Shown: positions 24,623 to 64,000, counted from the stretch's first letter. The stretch is 64,000 nt of DNA from Octopus vulgaris (GCA_951406725.2 OX597824.1:36146001-36210000); one strand, 5' to 3'. The notes: generated by a model from the sequence alone, not told the origin. Numbers and translations: made by a program.

Positions 24623-25029
24623 AAATTCACTCAACAACAAGTAATCAAAATGAAATACTATAGTAATAAAACTGAAAGTAAATAAAAGTACCTGTAATTG
24701 CAGCAAGGAAAAAGAAAACTATCAATTCCGAAATGTTGATGATTTTCCTTTGTCTCGGCATTTACCTTACATTTGTTTTTATTGCAACCACAATTCTTAT
24801 GGATTTATTAGGGCAAGTTGCAAACAGAACACTGAAATTATGTATTCAGTTTCAAGATGAATATATTTTCTGGAGTTAAATAAAGTAGTTGTTGGGAAAA
24901 AATCTATAAGATGTCCATCTGCCCATTTAACATCCATTTTCCCATGGTAGCATGAGTGGAGCAGAAATATCATAGAGGAAATAAGAGCATGTCAGAAATA
25001 TTTATGTGTTTGATGTTTGGAAAGAATAG

Positions 25030-30224: not shown

Positions 30225-30235
30225 TATATATATAT

Positions 30236-30676
30236 GGATCTTTTCGGTTTGAACGGCAGTTTTTTCTAACGGTGTCATATGAAATTGTTACCCATAATTA
30301 TGACCCTAGTATCGATCTATTGCATTTCAATCTGTTTTAGGGTTAGAGTTAGAGATAGTTAGGGTTGGTTAGGGTTAGGGGTGGAGGGAAGGGTATCTTT
30401 TTTTCTTCAGAAAAGTAAATAAACCCAATCTGTTTCTTAAACGAGGGACATATTCATACAGCACAGAATGTTTTCACCTCAATAGATGTCATTGATTGGT
30501 TGAAATTGCAGAAATTGAAGAAAAAAACCAACAAATATCTTACAAACTATAGAATTTTCTCAATAAAGCCAAGAGAAAAAGATGTTTTATAAACACATTC
30601 TACCAGTATACGAAGTTTAACAGTGTTTAGTTATGTGGAAATTATTTTAAAAAACTGCCGGTCAAACCGAAAAGAT

Positions 30677-30678
<2 letters not shown>
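30236..30678. mobile_element. GGATC-ended MITE, copy 3 (opposite orientation), inserted in (TA)n
   Basis: Same TIRs and internal sequence, with an expanded TTAGGG-like tract at about 30337-30382. Confidence 0.88.
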
Positions 30679-30711
<33 letters not shown>

Positions 30712-40145: not shown

Positions 40146-43100
40146 GTATGTCTATTGTATGTAAGAATATTATAAGAATATAATGTATAGAAATATTTCT
40201 TCTCTATGGCAGTTAATCTAAGTTTTGTAGTAGAATATATATATTTGGTATTTTAACCATAATATATTTTGTTTGGATTCAATTTGTTTGTTTGCATGCA
40301 TGCATAAACACATACACGCACACACACACACACACATACACACACACGCATGCATACAGACTGTCAAAATGAAAATTGCACTTATTCTTTAAAATTCTTA
40401 AAGCCAATTTTCCACCACAACATAAGTACTTCCAAATATTCAATATGGCCACTGTTAAACTTTCTTATTCTGCTGCACCTGATTTATCATCTATTATAGT
40501 TACCAACAATGATTCTAAATTTAAAAGAATATTAATTATTATAATATAATGTTAAACAAGTATGATATTAATTCCAAGTAGGCCAAAAATTATAGATTTA
40601 ATAATAATTGTACCTTTGAATATATTACTTGAAATAGTATTGATTATAATTGTAACTGTCACAAGGGTATAAGTTGTCAAATAAATAATGCTAGTTCTCA
40701 AATTATTTCTCAAACATTTAGACAAGTATAAAAGCGGAGAATTATTATAACCAGAAATAAGGAATAGTTTTTTTGGGTTTTTTTATGCTAGGTCCTATGT
40801 GACTTATTTTTATTGTTCCTGTTCTTATAGATGTTGCTGACAAAATTATTCAATATGCCGTCTATGGTGCTGCCCAAAATCAGTCTTACAACCGACTGGC
40901 TAAATTCACTGATATGTTTGGAAATAGAGTAGCAGGGTCTCAAAATCTTGAGAATTCAATTGGTAAGTACCTTTATTTGTTGCCCGACTAAGCCAAATAA
41001 TTAGGTAAAATTATAACTTGTACCACAAAACAAGTGATAAAGCTTATGGCAAGCCAAGACCACAGTTGTTGTTGTTGTGATTGCTTCAGCTGCTGCTGCT
41101 GTTGTTGTTGTTGTTGTTGTTTCTGTTGCTGCTGCTGCTGCTGATTAAGACAACCTGAAATGAGAAAATCCATAATCCCTTTTACTCTTTTACTTGTTTC
41201 AGTCATTTGACTGTGGCCATGCTGGAGCACCGCCTTTAGTCGAACAAATCGACACAAGGACTTATTCTTTGTAAGCCTAGTACTTATTCTATCGGTCTCT
41301 TTTGTCGAACCGCTAAGTTACGGGGATATAAACACACCAGCATCGGTTGTCAAGCAATGTTGGGGGGACAAACACAGATACACAAACATATACACACACA
41401 TACATACATATATATATACAACGGGCTTCTTTCAGTTTCCGTCTACCAAATCTACTCACAAGGCTTTGGTCGGCCCGAGGCTATAGTAGAAGACACTTGC
41501 CCAAAGTGCCACGCAGTGGGACTGAACCCGGAACCATGTTGTTGGTAAGCAAGCTACTTACCATACAGCCACTGTTGTGCCGAAAACATTCCAATCATAA
41601 CCATTTCATTGGTTACTGTATCAAGGACGCAATTGTCCAAAGTGTCCTTTTTTTGTTTTTATTTCCGAAGGTAAAGTGTAATTTGAAGGAGAATTGGCAG
41701 TTATTTCTAGAAAGTCAAATCCCAACATAGAATGGATTCACTATTAACTCATATACAATACAGTTTCAATCAGTTCTCATCCCAGTACCAGTGTAGAAGT
41801 CAGAAATGTTAAAATTTCTGACAATTTCATCTCTTCTGTTCTTGTCAGTCTATCTGTGAAAGATTTTCTTCATGAAGTCATGTACCTCATCAGACGGCTG
41901 TTTTGGAAAATAAATGTGTGTGTGTGTGTGTGTGTGTGTATAAGACTCATCAAGCCAAGTGAAATTGTAATCATGGCTGATGCTGGTGTCACGTATCTGG
42001 CACTCATGCTGTTGACACATAAAAGCACCCATTACACCCTTGGAGTGGTTTGCATTAGGAAGGGCATCCAGCTATAGAAACCATACCAAATAAGACTGGA
42101 ACCTGGTGCAGCTCTCAAGTTTACCAGTTCCACTCAAACCATCTAACCCATACCATCATGGAAAGCAGATGCTAACTGCTGCTGCTGCTGATATATACAC
42201 ACACATATATACATATACACACATACGCATACATGTGTGTGTGTGTGTATATAAACTTGTGTGTACATACACACACATTTTTATTGAGCAGAGTTGCATC
42301 AAGAAATACAGCAGTCTTAAAAACCGAAAACCAAATCAATGATTTCATTTTTATGTATGCAATGAAATTGATATTTGGTGGAATTTAATTAGTTTCATAT
42401 TTAATTTCTTTACAGATTACATTCTTCATAGTATGATGTCTGAAGGATTAGAAAATGTCCATGGAGAACACGTAAAGGTAAGGTAATTGAAAAGGATTCA
42501 TTAAGAAAAAAATTACTTTTTTATATCCAAGGAAGCAATTTTCACCATTCATCAGTATATGATATAGCAATGTTTCCAAGAAGTTTGGTAAATTTCCTGC
42601 AATTTTCAATTCAAGTCCTGACTAGTAAAAATGAGTGTGAGAAGGCGATGAGTGACAGAAATATTGGAGTGTCATATTAAATACTAGCTGGCCCTGTGCC
42701 GTAAAAAATGATGGTTAATTGTAGTATTTTATATATAAATATGGATGGTAAATCAAATTAATACACCTGTCAATGTTATCTAGTGGTTTGTCTTTTGAGA
42801 TGTGACATCGATCATCGTTTGTTACTGAAAGAATGCTGGTTCGCATACAAACATTCACATATTTCCCTTGTACATGCACACAGATATACTCACAAAGAGT
42901 TGAAACACTGTTTGATTTTTCTTTTCAGTGTTGACTCTTCACCATCCCACTTTCATTATACATACACACACACAAACATTCACATACCTCTCTTTTACAT
43001 ACACACACATACTCACACTGAGTTGAAACACTCCCACTACCAGTTTGCTATCATCCCTTTCTTCATTATTCATCTATCACCCCTTCCTTTCTCATTCATA

Positions 43101-46100
43101 TGTTGTGACAGAGAAAAACACATGATTATTATTATAGTAGATGTCATAGTATTTAGTTTGTATTTCTATGTTTTCTGGATTCTATCCACATTGGGAGCAA
43201 CATTGCTTTTTATTTCTGCAAAGAGGATGAAACAAGTACTAGTAATACAGGGTAATCTGTTTATTCAGTTATACTTAACTCATTTAAAAGTACAGTTTTA
43301 TGCTAGAGTGAAAATTAAAATATTATTTGTATTTATTATTTTCTCTTGCACCAATTATATTTTCTGAAAGATTGAAAAAACAGTGTTAGCACAATTCATG
43401 GAAGTTTTCTGACAGGAGTTACTTTGAAAACATTTAACCAAAGAGCCTGGGGTATATGTGGAGAGAGTGGAAATGCTTTAATTGACTACTCAAAGGATAA
43501 GGTCTAACCTAAAGTGGAATGGGGACCTAGTGTATCATTACCTTTCTGTGACTGTGGAACAGTCCAACTCTGAGTCTCCTTCTGGTTTGACCATTATTGA
43601 TGGATTCCTTTGTTGTTTGAAAGATTTGAAAAACGATGTAAAAATGGCACAAGATTGTGTTAAAGAATGAAAAGAATATAGACAAAACAAATGATAAAAA
43701 AAATGAAGACATAGGAAAAAGTTACTTCTATTTGACAGTGAGGTTCCTCTTACTGCCACTGAAAAGAGTATGACATCAGCCTTTGGAACTATTCCCCTTA
43801 GAGTTAAGGATTTGGTACCCTTTCAGGTTAACCTCCTTGAGATTCTTTGATAAGACTAATAACTTACATGAATTTAGCAATGATATATATATAACCAACT
43901 GCTTCTCAACAACATCATTAGCTTGTACCAGTAAACTAACCATAAGACATGTAACCTGATAAATGAAGAAACTAAGGCTACCATAAAAAATATTAATATA
44001 GCTCCGTGCCGGTGGCACGTAAAATGCACCAATCCGACCGTGGCCGTTGCCAGCCTCGCCTGGCACCTGTGCAGGTGGCACGTAAAAAGCACCTACTACA
44101 CTCACGGAGTGATTGGCATTAGGAAAGGCATCCAGCTGTAGAAACACTGCCAGATAAGACTGGAGCCTGGTGCAGCCTTCTGACTTCCCAGATCCCCGGT
44201 CGAACCGTCCAACCCATGCTAGCATGGAGAACGGACGTTAAATGATGATGATGATGATGATGATCAGTGGTTCTCAACTGGGGTCCATATAAAATTCCAG
44301 AGGGTTGAAACAAGCAAAATAGTAAATTGGAGATCTACAGTAGTATTTTAGGGGTCCATGAGAAATTTTTCTTTAGATGTATTTATTGCAAGAAATAACT
44401 TGGTTTCTTTCTCTCACATTTTGCATAGTTCAATATGTCTCCATCCATTGAAAAATGTTCCCTCAGAGAGTTCTGTTGCAAACCTATACAAGTGAATGAA
44501 TGCAAAATAAAATAGGAATTTTGAAAGAAGTATCTATAAAGTTAGTTTTCATACATTGAATGGCTATGGGGATCTGTCAGAGTAAAACAGTAATCAAAGA
44601 GATCCATAGGTAAAAAAAAAAAAAATTGTTGATAACCCCTGATATAGATAAAGAGTTGCATGTTTAGCTGAAAAATGTGAAGCATTTATAACATTAAAAG
44701 GTCACAAGGCCAACTGCAGAAACAGACCAAGTTATAGATTCACCCTTTAGTATTTAAACCAGCCATATCAGTCTTCCTCTTTTATATTCAAACCAAACCA
44801 GATCTGGCCTCTCACACCTACTCTAAAATATCGTCCTTAAAATAAACAATAACATCATCAGTATCTCACATTTACAAGATGATTTACAATTAATTTAAAG
44901 CAATGTGAATAAATAAGCATTGCATTTTATAGAGTAATCTGATGCTAAAGGGTTAATAAACACCACTAGCATTAAGTTAGGACTAATCAATGAAATATAT
45001 TCAGTGATATTAAAATTAGGAAGGGTGCCATCCTACAAAAATGGAACAACAGTACCACAACAAAATAAGGGTTCAGTGCTATTTCCAATAAGTCACAAGT
45101 TATGTACATCCAATCTCATAGTTTTGATATTTTACTTTTCAATATTCAGATCCTGATTAATTAAGACAGCAAAGTTCACATGTAATTGCATCAGCACTGA
45201 AGGATCAGTCATAGAACTAATTGCACACATGCCCTGCTCTGTGAACATGGGTTGGCTTGAGTAAAAATATCTGATCCTGCTGTCCTTTTTGATGTCTCAA
45301 TGAGTCTCAGAGTCCTGCTAGCTATGAAACATATGTAGCCTGGATTTTATATACTCCATTCCCTAAATTTGGATATATATATATGTGTGTGTGTGTGTGT
45401 GTAATTCTATAATTGTAACCTTTATTTTGTATTTATTGTCGTTATTTATTTGTTCTATTTCTTTTTTTAAATTCCAGGTACCACGTTGGGTGCGTGGCAA
45501 GGAATCTGCTACTATGCTGGAACCACAATATCACGAAATGGCCATTTTGGGGTTGGGTAGCAGTATAGCTACTCCTAAGAATGGCATCAAGGCAGAAGTA
45601 CTTGTTGTCAACAGTTTTGAAGAATTAAGAAAGAAAGCACAAATGGTAAATGCTTCAGCTTCCTTAAAATTCAAATGTAAATCTACCCAATCAAATGAAA
45701 GGTACAATTCCAAGCCAACCAATCATAAACATTGAGACATTGTGAGAAATGAAATTGCTTCTCTCAGGTTCTCTACACGGTTGCTCAGTCTACTAGAAAT
45801 AATAGCCTAATTTCATTCAAATCACATTGTACTACTGTAAAAAAAGGAAGAATACATTAGAAAATATATCCCAAGATAGACTGTATATGAATATTAAACA
45901 GGGTAGTCATGGTTGGAGTGCATTTATTTGTCTATCTGCTAATCTGGGGATAATCATGGAGTGCATTTATTTGTCTATCTGCTAATCTGGGGATAATCAA
46001 CTGAGGAGTATTCTGTTTGGTCATTCTACCTGCTAAAAACAGCAGGTAGAAACCTCCCTCAAATCACACCTTGCTCTTTAGTTAATGTAGTGTTGCATAT

Positions 46101-48031
46101 TCCTAAAAAGGTAGGATGGTCATGTCTAGCATGCTTTTGACAATATTTCCTGGGTTGACCCTGGGCTAAACAATAATTGTAACACTTGGTTATGAGCAAT
46201 TACTCTTCTGACTGACTTAGTTGCAGAATAACTTGCACTAAGATATTTGTAACATTCAGTTCATAATTGGGCCAACCAAAGCCTTGTGAGTGGATTTGGT
46301 AGGCGGAAACTGAAAGAAGCCTGTTGTATATATGTATATGTGTGTGTGTGTATGTGTGTCTGTGTTTGTCCCCCAACATCACTTGACAACTGATGCTGGT
46401 GTGTTTACATCCCCGTAACTTACGGTTCGGCAAAAGAGACTGATAGAATAAGTACTAGTCTTACAAAGAATAAGTCCTGGGGTCGATTTGCTTGACTAAA
46501 GGCAGTGCTCCAGCATGGCCACAGCCAAATGACTGAATAGCTGAAATGTTTCTAAGCATTTTTCCCAATGTGCTAATGATTCTGCCAAGCTCACTGCCTT
46601 AACTTATTGAAGAAGTGAGAAAATCACTTTGCTTGATTCAGTCGCAGTCACTGCAAAATCTTGGTGGAAACAGAGTATCATATGATAAAACATAGTAGGT
46701 AGGAGGAAATGTGAAGATTAGTCTGATAGGAGAATCAAACACAACAAATGTGATTGCTGAACATCAAGTGTTTCATCTACTGAATCCTATATTGAAGGTG
46801 AGATGAGTACAGCTAAAAACAACAAACTCACAAAAGCTTCTATATGGCTGCTCAGCCTGCAGAAATAGCAGCCAAATTCCTTTAGATTAGATCTTACTAT
46901 CTTAAAAAGGGAAAGATATGCCAGATAGTATAGTCCTGCATATATTGTATGAAAATAAGATGGAATGGTCACAACGGATACATTTTGGCCATAGAATTGC
47001 TTTATCTAAAATATTGTTCAATGAACTCCAGCATAGCTGCAGTCAAGTGACAGAAGCAAGTGAAAGAGTAAAAGAACACCAGCAACAACAGTAACAACAA
47101 CAGAAAAGACACCCTAATAAATATATGCTATTACAATCTAATATGACAGGTCACACAACATTGTTGTTAAATAAAGAAATATTTTCATGCTTTATCAATA
47201 AGAATTGTGCTTGTGCATTAAATCATAAGTTAACACAAGTTTATTGTGACAATAACAGAATATAAATATGTCTGAAATAACTGCACTTGGGAATTGGCCC
47301 ACCAAAGATTGTACGGCTGAAGTTACATTCTAAATTAATGTCCCTTAAGATGTGATTTTTATACTGAAAAATAGATTAATTTTACCAGTATCCTGTTGTC
47401 ACATTGCAGCAATAGGGATTTTGAAATGTATGGAAAAAAAAAAAAAAACTGTGCAGAAATATCATTGAAATGTTTGTTGACTTAAGGAAAAACAAACAAT
47501 TTGTTTAGTGTTATATGGCATTTTTCATTTCTGTAATTTATTTATTCAATTTTTTTATTTATCTGTCATACAACTACTTCAGTTTCAGGATCTTGAAAAA
47601 ACTTCCTTTTCAAATTGCTTTATATTTTGCAGGCTGAAGGTAAAATTGTTGTTTTCAACCAAAAATGGATAAGTTATGGAGAAACAGTTCAATATCGGAC
47701 CCAAGGGGCAAGTGAAGCAGCCAAAGTTGGAGCTTTAGCCTGTCTTATCAGAAGTGTTACACCTTTTTCAATCTATAGTCCTCACACAGGACATCAGGTA
47801 AGTAATACAGTGATAAAACGTAGTTATAAAATGCTGTCATAAACGCTTAAATAGCAGCTGATAAGAAATGATTTAATAAGGTTAAGCATTTAAAATGATT
47901 TGTACTCTATAACATGGGGGTTGACGACAGAAATTTCATTATTTCCTGGAATTTGAGCAGGCATTGGTGTGCTGTTGTGAAGTTTGCTTTACAGGAAATG
48001 ATAAAAAAGCTTATCAGAAACATAGTATATA

Positions 48032-48083
<52 letters not shown>

Positions 48084-51000
48084 TTAAAAAAAGGAGATGT
48101 CGAACACGAGTGGTGATATATAAAAAAGGAAATGAAGAAAATGCTGACAAATAATTGAAGTAATTTAAGTAATTTAATTAGGTGAATGTTCTTTTACCGG
48201 TTGCGCATTTGTTATGCTTATCAAAATATAAAAGAGAGATTAGAGTCTGTCTCTTATATGTGGAAAAAAAGAGGCTCCAGAGTTGTTTTGGATTTGCTTG
48301 GTTTCGCGCCTAAAATTTTGATTGGTCATTATGAAGGGGTCACGTGAATGTTTGAATGGAAGTTGGTGCTGGGGTAAGAAAAAAGGCTCCAGAGAAGTTA
48401 AAATTTGGCTAGTGTCCCGCCTAAAATTTCTTATTGGCCATAATAAAGAGGTCACGTGAATGTTTAGAATTTTCGAAAATAGTGTTGTTGAAACTTCTTA
48501 TTGTTCAGGCTGGTCAGTAGACGTCATGTGGATATTTTAAATAGCTTTTTAGCGCGTAGTTAGGGAGTGTATTTTCCGCTTGACTGGATAAGTAAGTTCG
48601 TTTAGAACAGGGAGAGCTGTATGTATGTATGTGTGCGCGCGCGCGTGTGTGTTTATATGTATGTTGGGGCGCGCGCGTGTATATATGTTTGTGTGTGTGG
48701 GTACAATTTTCAATATTTATAGTTCTGCTGGCCTTGTGCCTGTATCGGGAAGCAACGTATTTGTGTGAAGTCAATATTTACAGCCATTTCCAAAAAATAG
48801 TGTTGGATGTTTTGCACCCGTATTCAATTATGTGTATGTGTGGAACCATATATTTGTGTGTGTCATGGTGTTAATATCTGGGTAAAGGTGTGTGTAGGGT
48901 GTGTGCAGGTGTAAGTGTGTTTGTTGTGGGTTCGTGTTAGGGGCATGTGTTTAGAAGTGGTCTGTATTTATTAATAAGGTGGGATTCCATGGTTATTCGC
49001 TGGGTATGAGTGGCATTGTCTTTAAATTTGTAGAGGGGAAAGATTCTAAAATTGGGATGGAGTTGTGCGGCACAGGTATCAATATGTGCACTAAATGCTA
49101 TTTTTCTATATTCCTGTATTTTTATTTGGGATCTGTGGACAGTCATGCGTTGGCGGAGGCTATTTTTTGTTTGGCCTATGTAGTGTTCATTACAGCCCGA
49201 GCAAGTTAAGACATATACTAGGTTTTCTGATGCGCATGTGAAGTTGTGTTTTACTGTGAAACGTTGTCCTTGTTTAAAAAGGAATTCCGGACCTTCTATT
49301 AGGTTGATGCATATACCACAGTTGGGTCTATTGCATTTGTTTACTGTGGGTTTAGTTGTTGTGGTTGGCAGTACTTTGGCATTTGTTAGGATGGTTTTCA
49401 ATGATTTGGGTTGCCTTTTGCTCTTTATGATTTCGTGTGTTAGGAGGATTTGGTTCATTCTATGGTCCTTTTGTAATATAGGAATGTTCTGGAGGATGGT
49501 GTCAAAAGCTTCATTGTTGAGGGGGTTGTGTGTAGAGATGTATGGTAGAGTATGGGGTTTCGATGTAACAGGTTTAGGGCGTCTAAGTTCCTGCGTGCTG
49601 ATTTTTAGGGCGCGTTGGATCCCATTGTCAATTAGTGACGTGGGGTAATCCCTGCTTGTTAATGTGCCCTTGAGTTCTTGTAGACGTAAGAGACGGGTGT
49701 TTTTATTGGAGACTATAGTGCAAATTCTCTTGGCTAAGTTGTAGGGAATGTTAATTTTAACGTGTCTAGGGTGGCATGAATTGAAAGGGAGGTATTGCTT
49801 GGAGTCTGTGGGCTTGTAGTATATGTCTGTTTCTATTTTTTTGTTGTGAATTTTAATGAGGATGTCGAGGAAGGGAATTTGTTGAGGGCTGTATTCCATT
49901 GTGAAAATAATGTTTGTGTTGAGCCCATTTATAAGAGTGTGAAATTCGTTAAGCTTCTCGACGGTTTCGGGCCAAAGGATGAAGCAGTCATCAAGATATC
50001 TCTTCCAGTTCTTCTCTATGTGTGTGTGGAGAGTGGTGCCAAATTGGTTAAGAACGTTATTATAGAGGGTGATTTCCAGGTATCCCATGACTAAGTTGGC
50101 GTAAGTGGGAGCTGTTTTCGTTCCCATTGCCGTCCCTGATTTCTGTCTGTAGAATTTGTTGTTGAAGGTGAAGAAATTATTCTCTAAGATGAATTTGAGT
50201 CCTTCTAAAATAAATTCCTTTTTGATGCGGTGTGGGAGTTCGTTGGAGTAATTATCCAGCCAGAATTGGATAGCTTCTATTCCTAGGTTGTGGGGGATGT
50301 TGGAGTAAAGATTGACTACATCGAATGTTACTAGCAGGGTTTGTTCAGCAAGAAGTGTATTGGGGAGGTGGTTGAGCATATCTAGATCGTCCCTTATGTA
50401 GCTTTTAATGTGTTTGAGGAACGGCTTGAGAAGGGTATCAATGAAGTTGCTAAGGCGGTGGGTTTCGCAAGCGGGACCTGCTATTATAGGTCTCAATTTG
50501 AGGTCATTTGGTGAGGGGACATTGATTACAGAGTTTGTGGCTTCCTTGCATGCCTTACTTATTAATTCGCTTTTATGAATTTTGGGAATACCGTAGAAGA
50601 GGCTGGTTTTACTAGTGAAATTTGTGATGAAGTTGAATTCTTTGTTAGTGAGTTCTTCTTTGTGGGGGTTGATCAGGGTTTTTAAGTTTCTCATAATTTT
50701 CTGTTGATTGTAGTGTTCAGCCTTTTCGTAATATGTTCCATTTTCCAAGGTGGAGAGTGCTAAGTTGATATAGTATTCTGTCTCCATTAAGACTACTGCA
50801 CTTCCTTTATCGGCCTCTTTAATGGTGATAGATCTTTCATTTTTTAATTTGTTTAATTCTTCCCACTCTTTCTTGTTGAGGTTTGGTTTGGGTTTTGGTT
50901 TGTGTAAGTGTTGGTAGGGGAAGTTTGTAATGTGCTCACAGAATTCGTCTAGGATTTTATTTCTACCTTTTCGTGGGGTGTAGTTGCTTTTATTTCTAGC

Positions 51001-54000
51001 TAGTGACTCATCCTCATTGTGCTGGTCGAATAGTTCCTCACTAAGTCGCAATTTTCTACAAAATTCTGTAATGTCTTCCTTCATTTCGTAGTAGTTTGGA
51101 CGTGGGGGGGTTGGTGTGAATTTCAGACCTTTGGAGAGTAAGTTGAGAAGGTTGGGGTTGGGTTCTGTATTGGTTAAATTGATGACTTTAATTAGTTTAT
51201 GTTTCTCTTCCCTGTCCTGTGTTATTTTGTTTGCCTGTATCTGTGTGCTGTGTCTAAAAAATGGTTGGGGTAGAGGGGTTGTCTGTTGGTGTTAGGAGGT
51301 CCTGTGTGTTTGTTATATTCCTTGTTGTGAAATATGGTTCGGGTTCGTGGTTGTGGATAGAATGGGGTGTTCCTGTATTGCGGGTGTTGGTGTGTGTTTC
51401 TTTGTGTTGTGATGAATTGTGGTGATATGAGTGGCCTGCGTGGGTGCTTGTATCGAGTGGTATGGGTTTGTTGTGTATTGTGAGAGTTGAGAAAGTGAAA
51501 ATTACCTTGTTGTCCCCTCGTGGTGTGGATGTTGTTGTGTCTATCCTGGTAGTGGGATCCTCTTTTATTTGTTAATAAGGTATTCGAGTAGTTGTTGAGT
51601 TGTTGTGTGTAGCGTCTCCTTGAAGAGGGAAATTCGTTAATATAATTCTGGTGGTGAGAGTTTCCAGGGTTCTTGTTCCTCCTTATGGACGTGGGGTAAG
51701 AAGGTACATCTTCAATATGCTGTTTCCTTCTTTTGTTCAAGGTTGGAGGGTTGGTGGAGTAGTTGTGTGGTTGGGTTCCTGGTTTTCCCATTTTTATGAA
51801 CGGGTTATTGGAAGAGTAATCCGTTTTGAAAGTCGATTCATAGTTTAGGAACCAGGCGGCACTTTTTTCCCAGCGTTGTAGGGATTTTAGTTCCTCTTTG
51901 TTGCAGTCATCTTTCCATAACTTGGAGATCTTCTCTATGTGTAGGCTTTCAGCCTTGTTATTTATTACGAGGAGGATCTCTTCATCGATTGTTTTGACTC
52001 TTTCCTCATTTGTTTGGGCCCTTAATTTGAGAAGTTCAATCTCTGTTTTCAGTCTCTCTAATGCCATTCTTTCCCTAAGTCGTCTTTGAGGTTCAGGTTC
52101 ATTGGGAATGGCTTTTAATTGTATTTTGCGGGGAAGAGTTAGAGGAGTAGAGTTCATCCATTTTTCGTATATCTCGGCCTTGTTGTTGTTTCTAATCATT
52201 TTCCAGAAGGAGAACTTTCTGTCTCTGAGGGATTTGTTCCATTCTGGGATTATATGATTTTTCAGTTTGTATGAATCAATTTGACATGGTTCTTCTTTGT
52301 TTTTGGCTGGGTTGGTGGTGGTGAAAAAGGTGTGGATCGTATCACACAGAGTTTGTAGCTTATCGCCGATTTCGGAGGGTTTGTGTCCGGTAATGGTTTC
52401 CTCATTAGTAGAGTCCAATTTGTTGACTAGTACAGAGAGGTTGGTGTTGATGTTTTTGAGTTCCTGTAGGATTTCTTCGTTTAAGTTGATTAGGGTGGTT
52501 TCAGTTTTTGTAGGCATTTTCTGTATCTCGTGCGGGGATATGATATTTAAAAAAAGGAGATGTCGAACACGAGTGGTGATATATAAAAAAGGAAATGAAG
52601 AAAATGCTGACAAATAATTGAAGTAATTTAAGTAATTTAATTAGGTGAATGTTCTTTTACCGGTTGCGCATTTGTTATGCTTATCAAAATATAAAAGAGA
52701 GATTAGAGTCTGTCTCTTATATGTGGAAAAAAAGAGGCTCCAGAGTTGTTTTGGATTTGCTTGGTTTCGCGCCTAAAATTTTGATTGGTCATTATGAAGG
52801 GGTCACGTGAATGTTTGAATGGAAGTTGGTGCTGGGGTAAGAAAAAAGGCTCCAGAGAAGTTAAAATTTGGCTAGTGTCCCGCCTAAAATTTCTTATTGG
52901 CCATAATAAAGAGGTCACGTGAATGTTTAGAATTTTCGAAAATAGTGTTGTTGAAACTTCTTATTGTTCAGGCTGGTCAGTAGACGTCATGTGGATATTT
53001 TAAATAGCTTTTTAGCGCGTAGTTAGGGAGTGTATTTTCCGCTTGACTGGATAAGTAAGTTCGTTTAGAACAGGGAGAGCTGTATGTATGTATGTGTGCG
53101 CGCGCGCGCGCGTGTGTGTTTATATGTATGTTGGGGCGCGCGCGTGTATATATGTTTGTGTGTGTGGGTACAATTTTCAATATTTATAGTTCTGCTGGCC
53201 TTGTGCCTGTATCGGGAAGCAACGTATTTGTGTGAAGTCAATATTTACAGCCATTTCCAAAAAATAGTGTTGGCTGTTTTGCACCCGTATTCAATTATGT
53301 GTATGTGTGGAACCATATATTTGTGTGTGTCATGGTGTTAATATCTGGGTAAAGGTGTGTGTAGGGTGTGTGCAGGTGTAAGTGTGTTTGTTGTGGGTTC
53401 GTGTTAGGGGCATGTGTTTAGAAGTGGTCTGTATTTATTAATAAGGTGGGATTCCATGGTTATTCGCTGGGTATGAGTGGCATTGTCTTTAAATTTGTAG
53501 AGGGGAAAGATTCTAAAATTGGGATGGAGTTGTGCGGCACAGGTATCAATATGTGCACTAAATGCTATTTTTCTATATTCCTGTATTTTTATTTGGGATC
53601 TGTGGACAGTCATGCGTTGGCGGAGGCTATTTTTTGTTTGGCCTATGTAGTGTTCATTACAGCCCGAGCAAGTTAAGACATATACTAGGTTTTCTGATGC
53701 GCATGTGAAGTTGTGTTTTACTGTGAAACGTTGTCCTTGTTTAAAAAGGAATTCCAGACCTTCTATTAGGTTGATGCATATACCACAGTTGGGTCTATTG
53801 CATTTGTTTACTGTGGGTTTAGTTGTTGTGGTTGGCAGTACTTTGGCATTTGTTAGGATGGTTTTCAATGATTTGGGTTGCCTTTTGCTCTTTATGATTT
53901 CGTGTGTTAGGAGGATTTGGTTCATTCTATGGTCCTTTTGTAATATAGGAATGTTCTGGAGGATGGTGTCAAAAGCTTCATTGTTGAGGGGGTTGTGTGT

Positions 54001-56168
54001 AGAGATGTATGGTAGAGTATGGGGTTTCGATGTAACAGGTTTAGGGCGTCTAAGTTCCTGCGTGCTGATTTTTAGGGCGCGTTGGATCCCATTGTCAATT
54101 AGTGACGTGGGGTAATCCCTGCTTGTTAATGTGCCCTTGAGTTCTTGTAGACGTAAGAGACGGGTGTTTTTATTGGAGACTATAGTGCAAATTCTCTTGG
54201 CTAAGTTGTAGGGAATGTTAATTTTAACGTGTCTAGGGTGGCATGAATTGAAAGGGAGGTATTGCTTGGAGTCTGTGAACTGGAAGAGATATCTTGATGA
54301 CTGCTTCATCCTTTGGCCCGAAACCGTCGAGAAGCTTAACGAATTTCACACTCTTATAAATGGGCTCAACACAAACATTATTTTCACAATGGAATACAGC
54401 CCTCAACAAATTCCCTTCCTCGACATCCTCATTAAAATTCACAACAAAAAAATAGAAACAGACATATACTACAAGCCCACAGACTCCAAGCAATACCTCC
54501 CTTTCAATTCATGCCACCCTAGACACGTTAAAATTAACATTCCCTACAACTTAGCCAAGAGAATTTGCACTATAGTCTCCAATAAAAACACCCGTCTCTT
54601 ACGTCTACAAGAACTCAAGGGCACATTAACAAGCAGGGATTACCCCACGTCACTAATTGACAATGGGATCCAACGCGCCCTAAAAATCAGCACGCAGGAA
54701 CTTAGACGCCCTAAACCTGTTACATCGAAACCCCATACTCTACCATACATCTCTACACACAACCCCCTCAACAATGAAGCTTTTGACACCATCCTCCAGA
54801 ACATTCCTATATTACAAAAGGACCATAGAATGAACCAAATCCTCCTAACACACGAAATCATAAAGAGCAAAAGGCAACCCAAATCATTGAAAACCATCCT
54901 AACAAATGCCAAAGTACTGCCAACCACAACAACTAAACCCACAGTAAACAAATGCAATAGACCCAACTGTGGTATATGCATCAACCTAATAGAAGGTCCG
55001 GAATTCCTTTTTAAACAAGGACAACGTTTCACAGTAAAACACAACTTCACATGCGCATCAGAAAACCTAGTATATGTCTTAACTTGCTCGGGCTGTAATG
55101 AACACTACATAGGCCAAACAAAAAATAGCCTCCGCCAACGCATGACTGTCCACAGATCCCAAATAAAAATACAGGAATATAGAAAAATAGCATTTAGTGC
55201 ACATATTGATACCTGTGCCGCACAACTCCATCCCAATTTTAGAATCTTTCCCCTCTACAAATTTAAAGACAATGCCACTCATACCCAGCGAATAACCATG
55301 GAATCCCACCTTATTAATAAATACAGACCACTTCTAAACACATGCCCCTAACACGAACCCACAACAAACACACTTACACCTGCACACACCCTACACACAC
55401 CTTTACCCAGATATTAACACCATGACACACACAAATATATGGTTCCACACATACACATAATTGAATACGGGTGCAAAACATCCAACACTATTTTTTGGAA
55501 ATGGCTGTAAATATTGACTTCACACAAATACGTTGCTTCCCGATACAGGCACAAGGCCAGCAGAACTATAAATATTGAAAATTGTACCCACACACACAAA
55601 CATATATACACGCGCGCGCCCCAACATACATATAAACACACACGCGCGCGCGCGCGCGCACACATACATACATACAGCTCTCCCTGTTCTAAACGAACTT
55701 ACTTATCCAGTCAAGCGGAAAATACACTCCCTAACTACGCGCTAAAAAGCTATTTAAAATATCCACATGACGTCTACTGACCAGCCTGAACAATAAGAAG
55801 TTTCAACAACACTATTTTCGAAAATTCTAAACATTCACGTGACCTCTTTATTATGGCCAATAAGAAATTTTAGGCGGGACACTAGCCAAATTTTAACTTC
55901 TCTGGAGCCTTTTTTCTTACCCCAGCACCAACTTCCATTCAAACATTCACGTGACCCCTTCATAATGACCAATCAAAATTTTAGGCGCGAAACCAAGCAA
56001 ATCCAAAACAACTCTGGAGCCTCTTTTTTTCCACATATAAGAGACAGACTCTAATCTCTCTTTTATATTTTGATAAGCGTAACAAATGCGCAACCGGTAA
56101 AAGAACATTCACCTAATTAAATTACTTAAATTACTTCAATTATTTGTCAGCATTTTCTTCATTTCCTT

Positions 56169-56241
<73 letters not shown>

Positions 56242-59200
56242 CATATATATATAGCATAATTAAATATCAGAATGAGATTGAAACAGTAATCGCTCAATAA
56301 TGTAAAGTATAGAAGCCATCTTATCATGGCTAACCACATTGGGGAGGGGGTGTTACTGTAGCTTTATAGCCCCAAGATATCTTTGTCTCAAGCTGGCTTT
56401 AGACACAATATCTGTGTCCTTGGAGTATTTGCAAAGGGAGGCCATCCCTTCCTCGCAAGCCTGAGTGATACGCTCGAACTAGTTTCGGGATTGTTGTCCC
56501 TCGTCAATGGGCGGTAACCACCAGGTAGCGATGAAAGAGAAGGCTCCTTTGCAAATAGATATAAGTTTTTCTAATGGCGTCTGCCACTGATGTCGAAAAA
56601 CGAACAGTAAGCATAATTAAATCTCAGAATGAGATTGAAACAGTAATCGCTCGATAATGTAAAGTATAGAAGCCATCTTATCATGGCTAACCACATTGGG
56701 GAGGGGGTGTTACTGTAGCTTTATAGCCCCAAGAGATCTTAGGAAAATAAATATCTATCATTACATTGTGCATCTATGAATGTTTACCAGGTTGAGTTAA
56801 AAGTTTTTTTTTAGTATTTTAAGCCTTAATTAACAGTTCATATGAATTACATACGCAAAATGTCTATTCATCATAATATATCCCTTCTTATTCTATTGTC
56901 TGTTACCATCATTGTGCTAGAAGCTCGTTTCCACTCTTATGTTATTTGCCTGGTTTGGCAGCAAAAAGCTCACTGCATCTGTTTTCAACCTCATCCACAT
57001 TCTTGAGCCCCAGTCTGTGTAGAAATGAGCCATGGCTTGGAAAAGGTGGTAATCTGATGTTGCAATGTCTGGACTGTAGGTAGTGTGAAGCAGCACTTTC
57101 AGCCCCTCAAGTTCCTCAAGTTTGTGCTTGGTCACATTGGCAGTGTATGCGGAGGCATTGTCATGCTGTAGGAGTGTGCATCTTTGATTGTCCAATGATG
57201 TGTAGCAGCCTTTCAAAGCATCATGTACTTGCTGCAGTTGTTGAGCCTAAAGGTTAGCATTCACTGCGTAACCATTTGGGACAAGCTCAGAGTGCAACAT
57301 CTCCTCGAAATTCCATCAAACACACAACATGACCTTCTGTTCAAACCTCTCTTGTTTGACAACAGGTTCTGAAGCCATGCTGGAATGAAGCCACTAATTT
57401 CTTTTATTAAGATTATCAAAATAATCCATTTTTCATTCCCAGTTACAATTCAACACAAAAAACGGGTGTCACAAGAATTTGCCAGCAGTTGTTTGCAAAT
57501 TCTCACATTGTTGAGCCTGGTCATTGGTCAGTTCATGAAGAGCATTTCGACATCATCTGTTCACAAGGCTGAGTTTATGGAGTTTTGTGAATCAAGTTCT
57601 ACCAACAATTCATGAGTGCTTATGCTTGGCTGATGTTCAACCATTTCAAGCAAGGCCTCTTCCACAAAAGAAGGCCTCCCTGATCTTAGTTTGTCTCCAA
57701 GTCTGGTGTCACCTTTCCTGAAATGCCTGAACCAGTTTTATGTCATATGTTCATTGACAGTTCCTAGGCTTTCCACACTGTTAATTTCTTTTGCCACTGC
57801 CCTTGCACTCATTCCTACTTTTCCATATGTAGCATAAAATAGCTTTAATTGTAATTTTTTCATTGCTCATTATCAAAGCTGTAGAATAAAGAATAAACAT
57901 TTAATGTTCATGTGCTGTGTAGGAAAATAAAGAATAAACATTTCATCAATGACTGGGCAACAAGTTGTATCAAATTAATCATGTAACATGGAAATACAAG
58001 CTATCAAAAATCATCAGGGAAAATCTGAAAAACGTTTTGCATCAACCTGATACATTCTATAATGTCAATAATGTCAATTAATTGAGCAAAACTGGAGATT
58101 TTATGTTAACAATTCCATAGCAACAAATTGACCCTTAGTTCTGAAATTTCAAAACAGCTGGAATAAAAATGTCTTGCATGGAAAACAGGTAGTGATTAGG
58201 GACAGGAAGAGCATGTGGTTGTGAAATAATGTTTCAATAATAAGTCTTCATTCAGTCTATACTAGCATTGAAAATGGTTGTTAAATGAATGAATAAATAT
58301 CATATTCATCATAAGTTCTCTTTAAAATCTACGTTATTTACTTAGTGATATTGCCTGTGCTACTTACTATACAATAGATTTGTGCTATTATTTCTCTTTA
58401 ATCCTTTGATATTACCAGCTTAATACAAGACTGACCATTTTAAAGTGTGTATATTTAAATTAAAATTGTCCATAATAATTTTGATGAGATTGCAGAATTG
58501 TTAGTACACTGGGAAAAATGCTTAGTGGCTTTTTGTCCATCTTTATGTTCTGAGTTCAAATTCTGTCAAGGTCAGTTTTGCCTTTCATCCTTTCAGGGTC
58601 AATGAAACAAGTACCAGTTAGCACTGGGGTCAATGTAATTGACTGGCACCTATCCCTGGAATTTCAGGCCTTGTGCCTATAACAGAAAGGATTATCATTC
58701 AATCCCTAATATAAATACTTTGAATATTCCTAAAATTACATCCCAAATATGACAATAAAACTGATAATACAAGTAAAATTAATTTATGGCTATAATAAAA
58801 CTTTTCTGCTATTCTTGATAATTTTGCAATATTTAGTATTATAGTGAAGGTGTCCGTAAAATTCCTACAGCATGTATAACTGTTGAAGATGCTGAGATGA
58901 TGGAGCGTATGTCTAAACGAGGTTTGTATCTCTATTTCAAAATAATTTTTAATCTGTTTTAAAATTTTGTGTTATAACTCCTTCAAGTCTTTTTTTGTCA
59001 TTTCAATTATAGATGACACCAGATTTCCTTCCATCTAACATTTGTACTTTGCATGTTCATTTGGATATGTGAATTTGTCCATCACCAAACTTCTCTTCTT
59101 TTCTGCTTTTTATCCTCCCCCTCCTCCTCCACCACTACAAAATCCACGTCGATGGATTTGTATAGGGATACCACATCCATGCTACCCACTATACATCCTG

Positions 59201-60991: not shown

Positions 60992-62116
60992 TATTATTAC
61001 TCATTATTATCTTATTTTTGTTGCACTGGGTATTTTTTCTTATTTCAGGAAGTAAAATTGTTGTAGTCTTGAAGATGTCTGCTCAAACACTTAACTCTAC
61101 TGATTCCAGAAATATTGTTGCTGAAGTTGTAGGTCACAAGTACCCTGAACAGGTAAGATCAATCTAAATAAGTACACTGAACAGGTACATTCAATATAAA
61201 TAAGTACCTTGAGTGGGTATATTTAATTTAAATAAAAACCCTGCATAGGTACATTGAATCTAAATAAGTCCTCTGAATAGAAAAGTTCGATCTAAGTAAG
61301 TACCCTGAGCAGGTATGCTCAATTAAAATAAAAACTTTGAACATGTACAAGCAATCTAAATAAGTACATTGAACAGGGTACATATTTAGAGTGAGTTGTT
61401 TGTGTCTATAAATAATAAATAGAAAAAATTTGTGAAATAGTAGAAGCAAAGACTAGAATTGAAGAGCCTTAGAGACAACCTAGCAAAAACCAAAGTCTTA
61501 ATAAGTAGGAAGGCAGACAAACCACAAATCCCATCAGGTAGATGGCCCTGATTGATCTGTAGAAAAGGCATAGGTATAAATTCCATAAGATGTACCCAGT
61601 GTAAGCTATGGACACATAAGAGATGCAGCAATATCAAAGGAAGGCTAACTGGGAAGACAGTTGTTCTGCTTGCAAGACATAATAACTAAATCTCCATTGA
61701 ATCACACCCACTATTTTCAAATTGGAAGCACACACTGGTTAGTGTGGTTCTATACACTATGGCTGAAATAAAGAACAAGATGGTCATATCTGGAATGCTT
61801 TTGATCTAATGTCTTCTCAAGCAGAGCCGACTATGGGTTAAACATCAACAAACAACAAGAACTTAAGAGTAGGTAAAGGAGAAAGAAAAGAAAAACAGTG
61901 GGAAGAGATATTAAATGGTTAATTCTTTGATTAGTTCATTTATTAAGTTCATTGATAATTGAATTAGTTCATTATAATTTGAGTTCTCAGCATCATCAAC
62001 TCTAAACTATTTTATGTATTTTTAAACAGACTGTTTTAGTGAGTGGCCATATTGACAGCTGGGATGTTGGTCAAGGAGCCATGGATGATGGGGGAGGTGC
62101 CTTTATTTCCTGGCAG
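40074..62116 (+). CDS. CPQ: Carboxypeptidase Q (plasma glutamate carboxypeptidase, M28 metallopeptidase); spliced gene span, 3' part beyond the window
   Basis: Eight GT-AG exons join in phase and closely follow recalled vertebrate CPQ sequence, from [24 protein letters not shown] through [24 protein letters not shown]. Confidence 0.95.
40831..40962 (+). CDS. CPQ: CPQ exon ([44 protein letters not shown])
   Basis: TTCTTATAG acceptor and GTAAGT donor; CPQ N-terminal similarity. Confidence 0.93.
42416..42477 (+). CDS. CPQ: CPQ exon ([21 protein letters not shown])
   Basis: TTTCTTTACAG acceptor and GTAAGG donor; GLENVH motif. Confidence 0.9.
44265..44641. mobile_element. hAT-type MITE
   Basis: TIRs CAGTGGTTCTCAAC / GTTGATAACCCCTG; the 5' TSD is obscured by a (GAT)n SINE tail. 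Confidence 0.7.
45478..45645 (+). CDS. CPQ: CPQ exon ([16 protein letters not shown]...[35 protein letters not shown])
   Basis: TTCCAG acceptor and GTAAAT donor; start of the PA domain. Confidence 0.95.
47633..47797 (+). CDS. CPQ: CPQ exon ([10 protein letters not shown]...[17 protein letters not shown])
   Basis: TTTTGCAG acceptor and GTAAGT donor; PA domain. Confidence 0.96.
48190..48236 (-). ncRNA. Variant-core hammerhead-like motif in the PLE 3' UTR; copies at 52653-52699 (-) and 56059-56104 (+)
   Basis: Element sense: TTGATAA-GCAT aacaa ATGC-GCAA-CCGG-TA-AAAGA; perfect stem II, palindromic stem III ACCGGT, weak stem I. Confidence 0.55.
48937..51291 (-). CDS. PLE ORF2: reverse transcriptase + Cys linker + GIY-YIG endonuclease (frame open from 51291; first Met at 51084)
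   Basis: [16 protein letters not shown] upstream of the Met, then [76 protein letters not shown] and E..LI. Confidence 0.96.
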   Translation of the reverse strand, partial: HQQTTPLPQPFFRHSTQIQANKITQDREEKHKLIKVINLTNTEPNPNLLNLLSKGLKFTPTPPRPNYYEMKEDITEFCRKLRLSEELFDQHNEDESLARNKSNYTPRKGRNKILDEFCEHITNFPYQHLHKPKPKPNLNKKEWEELNKLKNERSITIKEADKGSAVVLMETEYYINLALSTLENGTYYEKAEHYNQQKIMRNLKTLINPHKEELTNKEFNFITNFTSKTSLFYGIPKIHKSELISKACKEATNSVINVPSPNDLKLRPIIAGPACETHRLSNFIDTLLKPFLKHIKSYIRDDLDMLNHLPNTLLAEQTLLVTFDVVNLYSNIPHNLGIEAIQFWLDNYSNELPHRIKKEFILEGLKFILENNFFTFNNKFYRQKSGTAMGTKTAPTYANLVMGYLEITLYNNVLNQFGTTLHTHIEKNWKRYLDDCFILWPETVEKLNEFHTLINGLNTNIIFTMEYSPQQIPFLDILIKIHNKKIETDIYYKPTDSKQYLPFNSCHPRHVKINIPYNLAKRICTIVSNKNTRLLRLQELKGTLTSRDYPTSLIDNGIQRALKISTQELRRPKPVTSKPHTLPYISTHNPLNNEAFDTILQNIPILQKDHRMNQILLTHEIIKSKRQPKSLKTILTNAKVLPTTTTKPTVNKCNRPNCGICINLIEGPEFLFKQGQRFTVKHNFTCASENLVYVLTCSGCNEHYIGQTKNSLRQRMTVHRSQIKIQEYRKIAFSAHIDTCAAQLHPNFRIFPLYKFKDNATHTQRITMESHLINKYRPLLNTCP
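51222..52517 (-). CDS. PLE ORF1: 431 aa from the first ATG, coiled-coil-like N-half plus basic Q/N/H/R/T-rich low-complexity tail
   Basis: Intact long ORF (frame open to 52613); heptad-like segments [18 protein letters not shown] and [26 protein letters not shown]; overlaps the ORF2 frame by about 70 nt. Confidence 0.85.
   Translation of the reverse strand: MPTKTETTLINLNEEILQELKNINTNLSVLVNKLDSTNEETITGHKPSEIGDKLQTLCDTIHTFFTTTNPAKNKEEPCQIDSYKLKNHIIPEWNKSLRDRKFSFWKMIRNNNKAEIYEKWMNSTPLTLPRKIQLKAIPNEPEPQRRLRERMALERLKTEIELLKLRAQTNEERVKTIDEEILLVINNKAESLHIEKISKLWKDDCNKEELKSLQRWEKSAAWFLNYESTFKTDYSSNNPFIKMGKPGTQPHNYSTNPPTLNKRRKQHIEDVPSYPTSIRRNKNPGNSHHQNYINEFPSSRRRYTQQLNNYSNTLLTNKRGSHYQDRHNNIHTTRGQQGNFHFLNSHNTQQTHTTRYKHPRRPLISPQFITTQRNTHQHPQYRNTPFYPQPRTRTIFHNKEYNKHTGPPNTNRQPLYPNHFLDTAHRYRQTK
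55829..56032 (+). promoter_or_regulatory. Duplicated ~112-bp promoter-like module in the PLE pseudo-LTR (also at about 48260-48465 and 52725-52930)
   Basis: Each unit has TCACGTGAC (E-box), CCAAT and TTTTAGGCG(G/C)G (E2F-like; unit 2 contains GGCGCGAAA) at fixed spacing. Confidence 0.55.
56253..56740 (-). mobile_element. Small non-autonomous hammerhead-bearing element (retrozyme or PLE pseudo-LTR-like): 131-bp direct repeats with a 357-bp period
   Basis: Repeats at 56253-56383 and 56610-56740 are near-identical; a hammerhead lies between them; the left end abuts (TA)n. Confidence 0.7.
56471..56513 (-). ncRNA. Minimal type I hammerhead ribozyme
   Basis: Minus strand: CGCCCA-TTGACGA-GGGA caacaa TCCC-GAAA-CTAG-TT-CGAGCG. 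Confidence 0.72.
56787..58050 (-). mobile_element. Mariner (DD34D) transposon, degenerate
   Basis: [10 protein letters not shown] and [13 protein letters not shown]; imperfect TIRs YCAGGTTGA..AAAA flanked by TA; about 1.26 kb. Confidence 0.9.
58837..58921 (+). CDS. CPQ: CPQ exon ([28 protein letters not shown])
   Basis: ATTTAG acceptor and GTTTGT donor; [15 protein letters not shown] motif. Confidence 0.95.
59040..59645 (-). pseudogene. Degenerate RT fragment of a further PLE lineage
   Basis: [22 protein letters not shown] and [13 protein letters not shown] across frameshifted ORFs. Confidence 0.75.
60420..60895 (-). pseudogene. C-terminal restriction-like endonuclease remnant of an R4/Dong-like non-LTR element
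   Basis: Minus strand gives [20 protein letters not shown]...IPCD...[10 protein letters not shown]...LLEVQK. Confidence 0.65.
61049..61152 (+). CDS. CPQ: CPQ exon ([35 protein letters not shown])
   Basis: TATTTCAG acceptor and GTAAGA donor; phases fit both neighbours. Confidence 0.95.
61138..61390 (+). repeat. 32-bp minisatellite (about 8 diverged units) whose first unit spans the CPQ exon end and splice donor
   Basis: Units start at 61138, 61170, 61202, 61234, 61266, 61298, 61330 and 61362; consensus AAGTACCCTGAACAGGTACATTCAATCTAAAT. Confidence 0.88.
61440..61670 (+). mobile_element. RTE LINE fragment (Cys-rich segment of RT)
   Basis: NLAKTKVL...[37 protein letters not shown]; matches 13930-14070 (-). 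Confidence 0.8.
62030..62116 (+). CDS. CPQ: CPQ exon with zinc ligands ([29 protein letters not shown])
   Basis: TTTAAACAG acceptor and GTATTT donor; M28 GHxDSW and GAxDD motifs. Confidence 0.97.
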
Positions 62117-62684
62117 GTATTTATCTTAAAATTTTAATAATTCATTTTTACTTTGGCATTTTTACTAAAATATAAGTTCTGATAAATGTTTAACATCATC
62201 TTATTTATTTATTTGCTTTAGTTGTCATTGAAATATTTTTGCTATAACCCTTTAGAATTTAAACCAATCACATCCAGCTCAAATATTCTACATGTATTAT
62301 GGTAACTAGTCAGATCCAGCTTTTCACACCTACCCTACAATGTTATTCTAAAAATAATCAAACACTGCATTGAAATCTTTTAGCTATGATATAATGCATT
62401 ATTAATTCAGAATATTGTGAATAGATAAGCATTATATTTGACAGAGTAATCTGAATGCTAAAGGGTTAGTTTATTTTTATGGACAGAGGCATAGCAGTTT
62501 AATGCCATGTGATATTATATACCATACATAAAACAATTGGAGAATCAAATTACCTTCGAGATTATTTTGAAAGTTAAATGTCCTGCTGTATATTTGTTTT
62601 AGCCTTACTGGGGATCTTTTAGTTTCAGCTTAATTCTATCATGCTGTGTTCCCAGTATACCAGGAATAGCCTAGATACATAACA

Positions 62685-63000
62685 TGGCAGTCCTGACTAG
62701 GATTATGTTACTACTTTTTAACCCTAGGAAAACATCTTTTCCACCTGATTTATCAACACATGAAATATGTCTTAGATATACTGTAAGCAAGGGGGCTCAC
62801 TGCTCCCTTCTAGCCATTGGCAGTACCAGCAGACTAATGGTTTCTGGGTTATTTCACTTCCTCAGTGCTGGATAGAAGGGAGCAGTGAACCCCCTTGCTT
62901 GCAGTATGTCTAGGACACAGGTCATGTGTCAATAAACCAGCTGGAAAAGATATTTTCCTGAGATTAAAAAGTAGTAACATAGTCCTAGTCAGGACTACCA
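62685..63000. repeat. Foldback (palindromic MITE-like) element with ~130-bp arms
   Basis: TGGCAGTCCTGACTAGGATTATGTTACTACTTTTTAA...CTTCTAGCCA pairs with TGGATAGAAG...TTAAAAAGTAGTAACATAGTCCTAGTCAGGACTACCA; loop about 55 nt. Confidence 0.9.
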
Positions 63001-64000
63001 CATTATTATGTTGGCAAGTTAAAATAACTATCCAGTACTGTTACTATTTAGATTCCAAATTGGCTATTTAAATCTAACCAAGATCTACAGGATTCCCGTT
63101 AAAGCTGTAATGAACAAGAAAAAGAAGATAAAATACTATAAATAGACAACCAATCACATTGCAGCTTTGTAATGAAGTGTGTTAATAGTAGCCTACTTAG
63201 CTGTTGTTTATTTTTGTTTCTTATAAAATAACAAAAGAACGATTCTTTTGCAATGAAATGAGTGCATAATGAACCCAGAACAAAAAAGGCCAAGACTCTT
63301 TACAGTTGAGGAAATCATTGATGATATTTACTCTTAAGATGAATAACTTATCCTTATGCAGACAATAAGAGTGATGTGGACATCAAACTGGTTAAAGAGA
63401 TGAGGAAAGTAGCAATTCAGGCAAACAAATATGTTAGTTGAGAGACAGACTTATAGTTGTTATTCTCCTGAATTTTTAACCATTTTATCCGTTTGTTTGC
63501 CATCTATCATTATTCTTGAGCTGTGTACGCAACTATTTATTTTGTTTGACTCAGGAGACCAAGTGGAGGGTTAAGTTAGACAAAAGGGCACAGATCTGAG
63601 AGAGTTAATGTGAGATGGATACAATTCATATTTAAACTACAACCAGCCATCACTTGTGGCTTGGTAAGTTGCACCATGCTTTCTCTAATTGATTCAGGGA
63701 CCTCTATAGTCATTGGTAGACATAGACGCCCTCCCAATTTTCTTACAGTTGACCCTGTGAAATATTCAGAAGGTGACACCTGGAATGAGAGAAAGGGCTG
63801 CACTGGTATCCAGTTCATATTCTTTATAGATATTTATATTGGTGGATCATGAAATGAAACACCTTGCTCAAAAGGATGCAATTCATTGTTAAGTCTAAGA
63901 ATTTACCAGTAATTTTAAGAAGAAGGAATTCGTTTTTGTTTAAAATATTTTATTTCAGTAGTTTTTTTTGTGTAAATGAAATAATTATTTATTGTAAATG

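Follow-up and report, generated by a model that had tools for sequence, protein, structure and literature searches.

We analysed a 64,000-nucleotide window of Octopus vulgaris DNA (GCA_951406725.2 OX597824.1:36146001-36210000; positions count from its first letter), which carries a near-perfect palindrome. The palindrome is not free-standing and forms the inner portion of one Penelope-like insertion of approximately 8.1 kb (48080-56178), lying between two (TA)n tracts. We consider it probable (roughly 0.7) that the palindrome arose incidentally when a Neptune-type Penelope-like element recently integrated, in a single event, into a (TA)n tract. As such, it is an expected and well-described integration product, here unusually young and clean. 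On this reading, it came about by accident during integration and does not represent a regulatory device under selection.

When 52579-54277 was globally aligned to the reverse complement of 54478-56178, 1695 of 1699 positions were identical; four mismatches remained, plus a single 2-nt gap that falls in a GC microsatellite. The unbroken identical runs between the arms measure 6, 92, 419, 176, 481 and 521 nt. In a self-BLAST of the window, the arms matched at 99.6% over 1701 columns (E 0.0), far above chance. An earlier interpretation made before any computation (the sequence-only reading) had described arms of about 1.7 kb, a 200-bp spacer at 54278-54477 and a 1-nt overlap, the G at 54277 common to both arms. 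The alignment returned this geometry, with the left arm beginning at 52579. The 1-nt overlap is what chance would give and is mechanistically uninformative. The arms had also been said to span the thumb region of the reverse transcriptase (RT), the GIY-YIG endonuclease and the untranslated region (UTR), and translation and the Pfam domains agree with this, the UTR being the 3' one.

A third copy had gone unmentioned. Self-BLAST revealed that 54277-56249 is an inverted match of 48026-50011 (98.2%, the mismatches lying mostly within microsatellites), and that 52538-54277 is a direct repeat of 48076-49810 (99.4%). The insertion consists of the following parts:

48080-52542, minus strand: copy A, one full 4463-bp unit of the probable Neptune-type Penelope-like element.
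52543-54277, minus strand: copy B, a tandem 5'-truncated copy that forms the upstream pseudo-long terminal repeat (pseudo-LTR); 52579-54277 is the left palindrome arm.
54277: head-to-head junction of B and C, a single common G.
54277-56178, plus strand: copy C, inverted, 5'-truncated and without tail; 54478-56178 is the right palindrome arm.
54278-54477, plus strand: spacer, the 5'-most 200 nt of C, from the RT catalytic YLDD region.

B is a seamless direct repeat of the 3' part of A, and the partial tandem that forms the pseudo-LTR is present. In a three-way alignment, the spacer was identical to 49810-50011 at 202 of 202 positions; it is complementary to A and not to B. Only four substitutions and the length of one microsatellite separate the three copies. 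Two of the substitutions are private to B and two to C, and one of these adjoins the TA junction. With so little difference between the copies, either the insertion is very young or homogenisation has taken place. On the sense strand of the element, one of the four changes is A-to-G and one is a CpG-type C-to-T. We rejected these changes as marks of editing, as they are too few to carry meaning.

The ends of the insertion and its target are as follows:

48026-48083: left (TA)n target tract; its final 4 nt (48080-48083) are common with the 3' end of the element.
48080-48115, minus strand: 36-nt 3' tail of A, delimited by a 21-22-nt U-rich motif that is present in two copies.
56173-56253: right (TA)n target tract, with which the last 6 nt of C are common.

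The alignment places the 36-nt tail on A and B and none on C. The outer ends of A and C are 36 nt apart, in the same register of the duplicated U-rich motif, and both finish in ATAT matching the target (4 nt for A and 6 nt for C). Such a pairing is rare in the unit, where a similarly alike neighbour 22-59 nt away was seen for 1 of 624 sampled 21-mers. The motif pairs flanking the tail occupy 48080-48137 and 52543-52600 (minus strand).

In the simplest and most likely reading of this layout, two cDNAs, one primed by each strand of the target, became fused head to head. After endonuclease cleavage of both TA-tract strands, reverse transcription would start from each 3' end. The left target end would prime at the distal motif and yield copy A; synthesis past the unit boundary, either by a template switch or on a longer-than-unit RNA, would add copy B. 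The right target end would prime at the proximal motif, yielding copy C without a tail. The two truncated cDNA ends would then be joined head to head without real homology.

Published descriptions contain the same layout. According to Craig et al. 2021 (PMC8557442), insertions often consist of a full copy with a truncated tandem copy ahead of it and an inverted 5'-truncated copy adjoining at the 5' end; they also have a tail of 30-40 bp at one end and (TA)n targets. The match bears out the sequence-only reading, which had taken the locus for a Penelope-like integration product of the tandem and inverted type. The tandem plus inverted layout is called typical in Adineta as well, where self-priming has been proposed for palindromes at inverted junctions (PMC3846280). 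The PAc protein of the anole cleaves and extends both strands, and its reverse transcription begins at two sites, between which the tail lies (Frangieh et al. 2024, PMC11167929).

Several points weigh against this origin. A single integration event is deduced from the structure of one locus, and both junctions fall inside (TA)n, where a target-site duplication is unreadable. Four variants do not suffice to tell whether C was primed independently or copied from A in cis. PAc is of the Poseidon clade and initiates inside its open reading frame (ORF), at sites not homologous to the cut DNA, whereas this element ends upstream of the ATG of its ORF1 and has short target homology. Neither Rfam (E up to 1) nor scans for the core motif found a hammerhead ribozyme in the element, a usual though not invariable component of the pseudo-LTR in EN+ (endonuclease-positive) Penelope-like elements; degenerate forms can escape such searches. 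Transcription of the host gene is presumed.

The assignment to the Neptune type draws on the larger reading frame of A:

48937-51291, minus strand: ORF2, 784 codons from stop to stop, with RT, a CX4CX2C linker and, at the C terminus, a GIY-YIG endonuclease.

ORF2 matched RVT_1 (E 3e-07) and GIY-YIG (E 2.6e-06) above the Pfam cut-offs, with the RT at residues 265-442 followed by GIY-YIG at 691-778. Translation and alignment identified a CCHH motif whose two cysteines fall between GIY and YIG, a feature of EN+ Penelope-like elements (PMC8557442). All three checked cysteines of the linker are invariant in 25 aligned sequences. The Neptune type is indicated by the CX4CX2C linker, the position of the endonuclease at the C terminus and the TA target; the comparison with Craig et al. 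2021 (PMC8557442) was made by eye, from the text of Figs S1-S2. The Naiad clade, whose endonuclease is N-terminal to the RT, does not fit, as GIY-YIG here follows the RT. A canonical Penelope or Poseidon element, with a single ORF and lacking a zinc-finger-like linker, does not fit either, given the CX4CX2C linker and the presence of two ORFs in a -1 overlap.

The strongest alternative to priming from both target strands is a snap-back in cis, which we regard as unlikely. The cDNA of A and B would fold its 3' end onto A and copy the last 1.9 kb of A, giving C, which would then be joined to the right target end via an ATATAT match. This route retains some probability because, at the two sites where B is variant, A and C are alike. 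The spacer is likewise identical to A, and a related self-priming idea has been put forward for Adineta elements (PMC3846280). However, the junction homology is only 1 nt and there is no junction palindrome. Moreover, C stops at the register-matched motif, as predicted by two initiation sites. Fold-back between the arms themselves is ruled out in both directions. C cannot be a copy of B, from which the spacer is missing, and B cannot be a copy of C, since B has a tail, extends into ORF1 and is without the variants of C.

It is improbable that C, or B together with C, came from separate events, either an independent insertion or later recombination or gene conversion at the TA tract. In favour of such events, repeats do target the TA tracts. 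The right one is abutted by a small hammerhead-like partial tandem, and an old relative lies near another tract (2296-2377). Conversion could also hold the arms alike. Nevertheless, B and C join directly inside RT coding sequence with no TA between them, and the same layout recurs across the Penelope-like class (PMC8557442, PMC3846280).

The surroundings of the insertion bear on a third alternative. The host gene was delimited as follows:

45478-45645, 47633-47797, 58837-58921, 61049-61152 and 62030-62116, plus strand: host exons, with AG/GT ends and an open frame.
Near 40830-40961 and 42417-42478: two further likely host exons.
47798-58836, plus strand: host intron of 11,039 nt, flanked by exons 47633-47797 and 58837-58921.

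The five plus-strand exons share one frame, with 203 codons and no stop, and flank the insertion, which makes up approximately 8.1 kb of the 11,039-nt intron. One of the five exons gave a Peptidase_M28 match (E 4.3e-06). The host protein matched PDB entry 3iib weakly, with a PA-domain cluster at 0.90. The host is probably an M28 peptidase gene, CPQ-like; the name CPQ is that of carboxypeptidase Q, a protein with a PA domain and an M28 peptidase domain, which may be the counterpart. The palindrome had been placed inside the CPQ pre-mRNA. Its intronic position on the sense path of the host gene stands, given the in-frame flanking exons, whereas the gene name is provisional, with one Peptidase_M28 exon behind it.

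An assembly or library artefact, that is, a fold-back chimera or a mis-join through repeats, is improbable: to either side the host exons remain collinear and in frame, and the two arms have different ends, one with a tail and one without. Such structures do trouble assemblies (PMC8557442), and the arms are 99.7% identical; yet the arms carry private variants, and folding back either of them would not yield the present sequence.

If the host gene is transcribed, C could pair either with B, leaving a loop of 200 nt, or with A, leaving one of 4.3 kb. Both pairings are available because the spacer is itself element sequence. Calculated as imposed structures and not as folding predictions, the C:B pairing has 1695 bp and -3225 kcal/mol, and the C:A pairing 1894 bp and -3600 kcal/mol. 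The A:C duplex is longer than B:C, and the spacer, which would be transcribed first within C, pairs only with A. The sequence-only reading had claimed a long double-stranded RNA (dsRNA) hairpin. The transcript would indeed hold at least 1.7 kb of near-perfect complementarity, but the palindrome is one of two alternative pairings.

An intronic dsRNA of 1.7-1.9 kb would plausibly be an editing substrate, which is the likely outcome, and possibly a source of small interfering RNAs (siRNAs). Ubiquitous editing in squid affects repeats that lie in introns and UTRs (PMC9068888). The Penelope siRNAs of transgenic Drosophila corresponded to inverted regions but did not silence the element efficiently (PMC3681739). 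Within the window there are 24 inverted matches of at least 150 bp, and the two from the insertion are by far the longest and most perfect. That the hairpin is a retained functional silencing locus, controlling the element family or tuning the host gene, is the least probable of the alternatives: the squid and Drosophila observations speak for it, but the insertion is very young and so shows no sign of selection, the Drosophila silencing was inefficient, and the 24 inverted matches make intronic dsRNA commonplace here.

The palindrome had also been proposed as a fragile site. For Alu repeats in yeast, a 200-bp spacer cut the rearrangement rate approximately 20-fold relative to 12 bp, and spacing is of little weight in long single-stranded DNA (PMC10164571). 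A modest risk of fragility is plausible at this locus because the arms are approximately five times the length of Alu.

The 3' region of A is built as follows:

48116-48936, minus strand: 3' UTR and pseudo-LTR of A, with two 95-nt imperfect repeats (79%).

A pair of 95-nt repeats is present in each 3' UTR (48264-48470, 52727-52933 and 55824-56030). A motif scan on the matching part of C showed that the repeats carry CCAAT, CACGTG and E2F-like motifs, and from these they appear promoter-like. The pair in A would point antisense, toward a host exon approximately 500 nt away, and the pair in C toward the downstream host exons.

Upstream of ORF2, the element encodes a second protein:

51222-52517, minus strand: ORF1, 431 aa, with a long-helix domain at residues 81-240 (predicted local distance difference test, pLDDT, >90) and a disordered tail.
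51255-51261, minus strand: slippery heptamer U_UUU_UUA in the 70-nt -1 overlap of ORF1 and ORF2, a candidate programmed frameshift site.

Judged from its relatives, ORF1 is a conserved stand-alone family. There are 565 relatives at E 0.001, and the best 150 are all at most 541 aa long. The best 120 relatives of ORF2 measure 633-798 aa, though candidates ran up to 1372 aa. No longer forms of ORF1 came up when they were searched for, a weak piece of evidence. No Pfam family is common to more than 1 of 106 aligned members. The ORF1 model had no Foldseek match at E 0.001, and a wide search returned generic helical bundles (best Z 8.7). We rejected a gag or capsid identity: the gag/PNMA-like clusters at 0.85 in the feature search are a lead only, and the structure model consists of long helices.

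ORF1 and ORF2 overlap in the -1 frame over 70 nt (51222-51291, minus strand), and the heptamer lies in the ORF1 frame. The first in-frame ATG of ORF2 is codon 70, past its conserved N-terminal motifs. Conservation at the slippery site was counted in the 72 ORF1 relatives of at least 330 aa, out of 151. The dipeptide FL is present in the last 45 residues of 60 of the 72, compared with 4/72, 4/72 and 12/72 in upstream control windows. Since the median pairwise identity is 29%, this conservation is not redundancy. The residue before FL can end in T in every case (0/60 without any T-ending codon; background 21%). The F lies exactly 12 residues from the ORF1 end in 20 of the 60, as it also does in the window element.

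Support at the DNA level is slight: an ORF1 relative was present in 1 of 39 fetched loci, L002, which has the same -1 overlap at 1199-1268 with the heptamer U_UUU_UUG; the ORF1 of L002 has an in-frame stop. These element relatives (L001-L039) are in contigs filed as bacterial genomes and are most likely host DNA carried into the bins. One of them, L004, contains a 4.7-kb direct repeat (99.9%). No stimulatory hairpin was found after the slippery site, either in the window (z +1.30) or in L002 (z -0.51). A homopolymer error as the cause of the frameshift is disfavoured by the relatives and possible for this copy. The slippery site could instead be a splice acceptor, with which the 45 of 60 relatives whose residue after FL has a codon starting in G are compatible. 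We rejected this explanation, as the other 15 have no such codon and L002 has no AG; moreover, an acceptor would not need to keep its frame with ORF1.

The Fig. 1 legend of Craig et al. 2021 (PMC8557442) mentions an ORF1 separable by a frameshift with a pseudoknot, for a clade not named in the excerpted text. The frameshift is at most partly new because of this legend. A search of the open literature, with subscription papers and Repbase outside its scope, gave no direct description of this frameshift; the available portions of 10.64898/2026.07.22.740005 and PMC5408684 hold nothing on it. Tentatively, and as less likely than not, we suggest that A is intact and was recently active, and that its RT-endonuclease would be made by a conserved -1 frameshift at U_UUU_UUR without a local stimulatory hairpin. 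In the same tentative proposal, the tail would be set by the duplicated U-rich motif annealing to (TA)n at both ends, in a widespread lineage.

The palindrome is of value as a clean, young, intronic example in which dsRNA formation and editing are testable. The two ends of the insertion probably correspond to a pair of priming sites within a duplicated motif. This bears on how the tail and the inverted copy form, which Craig et al. name as an open question (PMC8557442). By the conserved trace of a frameshift, many elements of this kind that have been annotated as two genes or as broken may be intact. If the tentative proposal of an intact A, a frameshift and motif annealing is true, the locus would be a ready substrate for testing the origin of the inverted unit and the tail. 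Integration would then plant a host-transcribed dsRNA trigger of 1.7-1.9 kb against the element's own family.

Other repeats were observed in the window. A 131-bp direct repeat (56253-56383 and 56610-56740, 97.7%) adjoins the right TA tract. A degenerate hammerhead-like core at 56507 (minus strand), with a 4-bp stem II and a palindromic stem III, was not seen by Rfam and is the only one in the window by pattern scan. The region 56253-56740 is possibly a small non-autonomous Penelope-like or retrozyme partial tandem. Over 46000-58000, Rfam gave 16 matches, all of them microsatellite matches to microRNA or small nucleolar RNA models below the gathering scores. An older, decayed relative of the element lies at 1 to approximately 1500 (plus strand), with about 67% nucleotide identity to A over 770 bp, and the TA tract at 2296-2377 is downstream of it. 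Two open frames of 172 and 285 codons at 6593-8264 (plus strand) have no Pfam match and are presumably a decayed DNA-transposon gene. A repeat of 420-460 bp occurs three times at 24194-25448 and 30232-30687, in two direct copies (92%) and an inverted one (84-87%). An imperfect palindrome of 347 bp (62669-63015, 76%) is possibly a miniature inverted-repeat transposable element.

The locus resembles known EN+ Penelope-like insertions (Craig et al. 2021; Adineta Pen2a) in having a full copy, a truncated tandem, an inverted truncated copy, a tail at one end only and an AT-rich target. The arms in Pen2a are approximately 0.2 kb, compared with 1.7-1.9 kb here, and in contrast to those insertions we see no junction palindrome and no readable target-site duplication. 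With the Neptune clade, the element shares a CX2-5CxxC linker between the RT and the C-terminal EN, which also occurs in Nematis and is not exclusive; it differs in that no hammerhead was found and ORF1 is separate, in a -1 overlap. PAc (Poseidon, Anolis carolinensis; in vitro) is alike in that two end positions delimit a tail, and the structure here fits extension of both target strands. However, PAc carries a hammerhead and a single ORF, within which it starts without target homology, whereas the ends here are upstream of ORF1, at a duplicated motif with a 4-6-nt target match. The long inverted repeats of Drosophila Penelope are similarly inverted copies able to give dsRNA. There, siRNAs were seen; here, the transcript would be a host pre-mRNA intron.

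Among the repeats listed for the 39 loci of distant relatives (at most 8 per locus), there are direct partial tandems in L004 and L010 and inverted repeats of approximately 300 bp in L020 and L025, and none with kilobase inverted arms. In the twin priming of L1, two primers on opposite target strands produce a head-to-head junction with little homology, and the inverted piece is a different, upstream and non-overlapping part of one RNA. An inversion of the L1 type was rejected here, as B and C both cover the 3' end. The palindrome arises because both arms copy the same 3' end, unlike in an L1 inversion.

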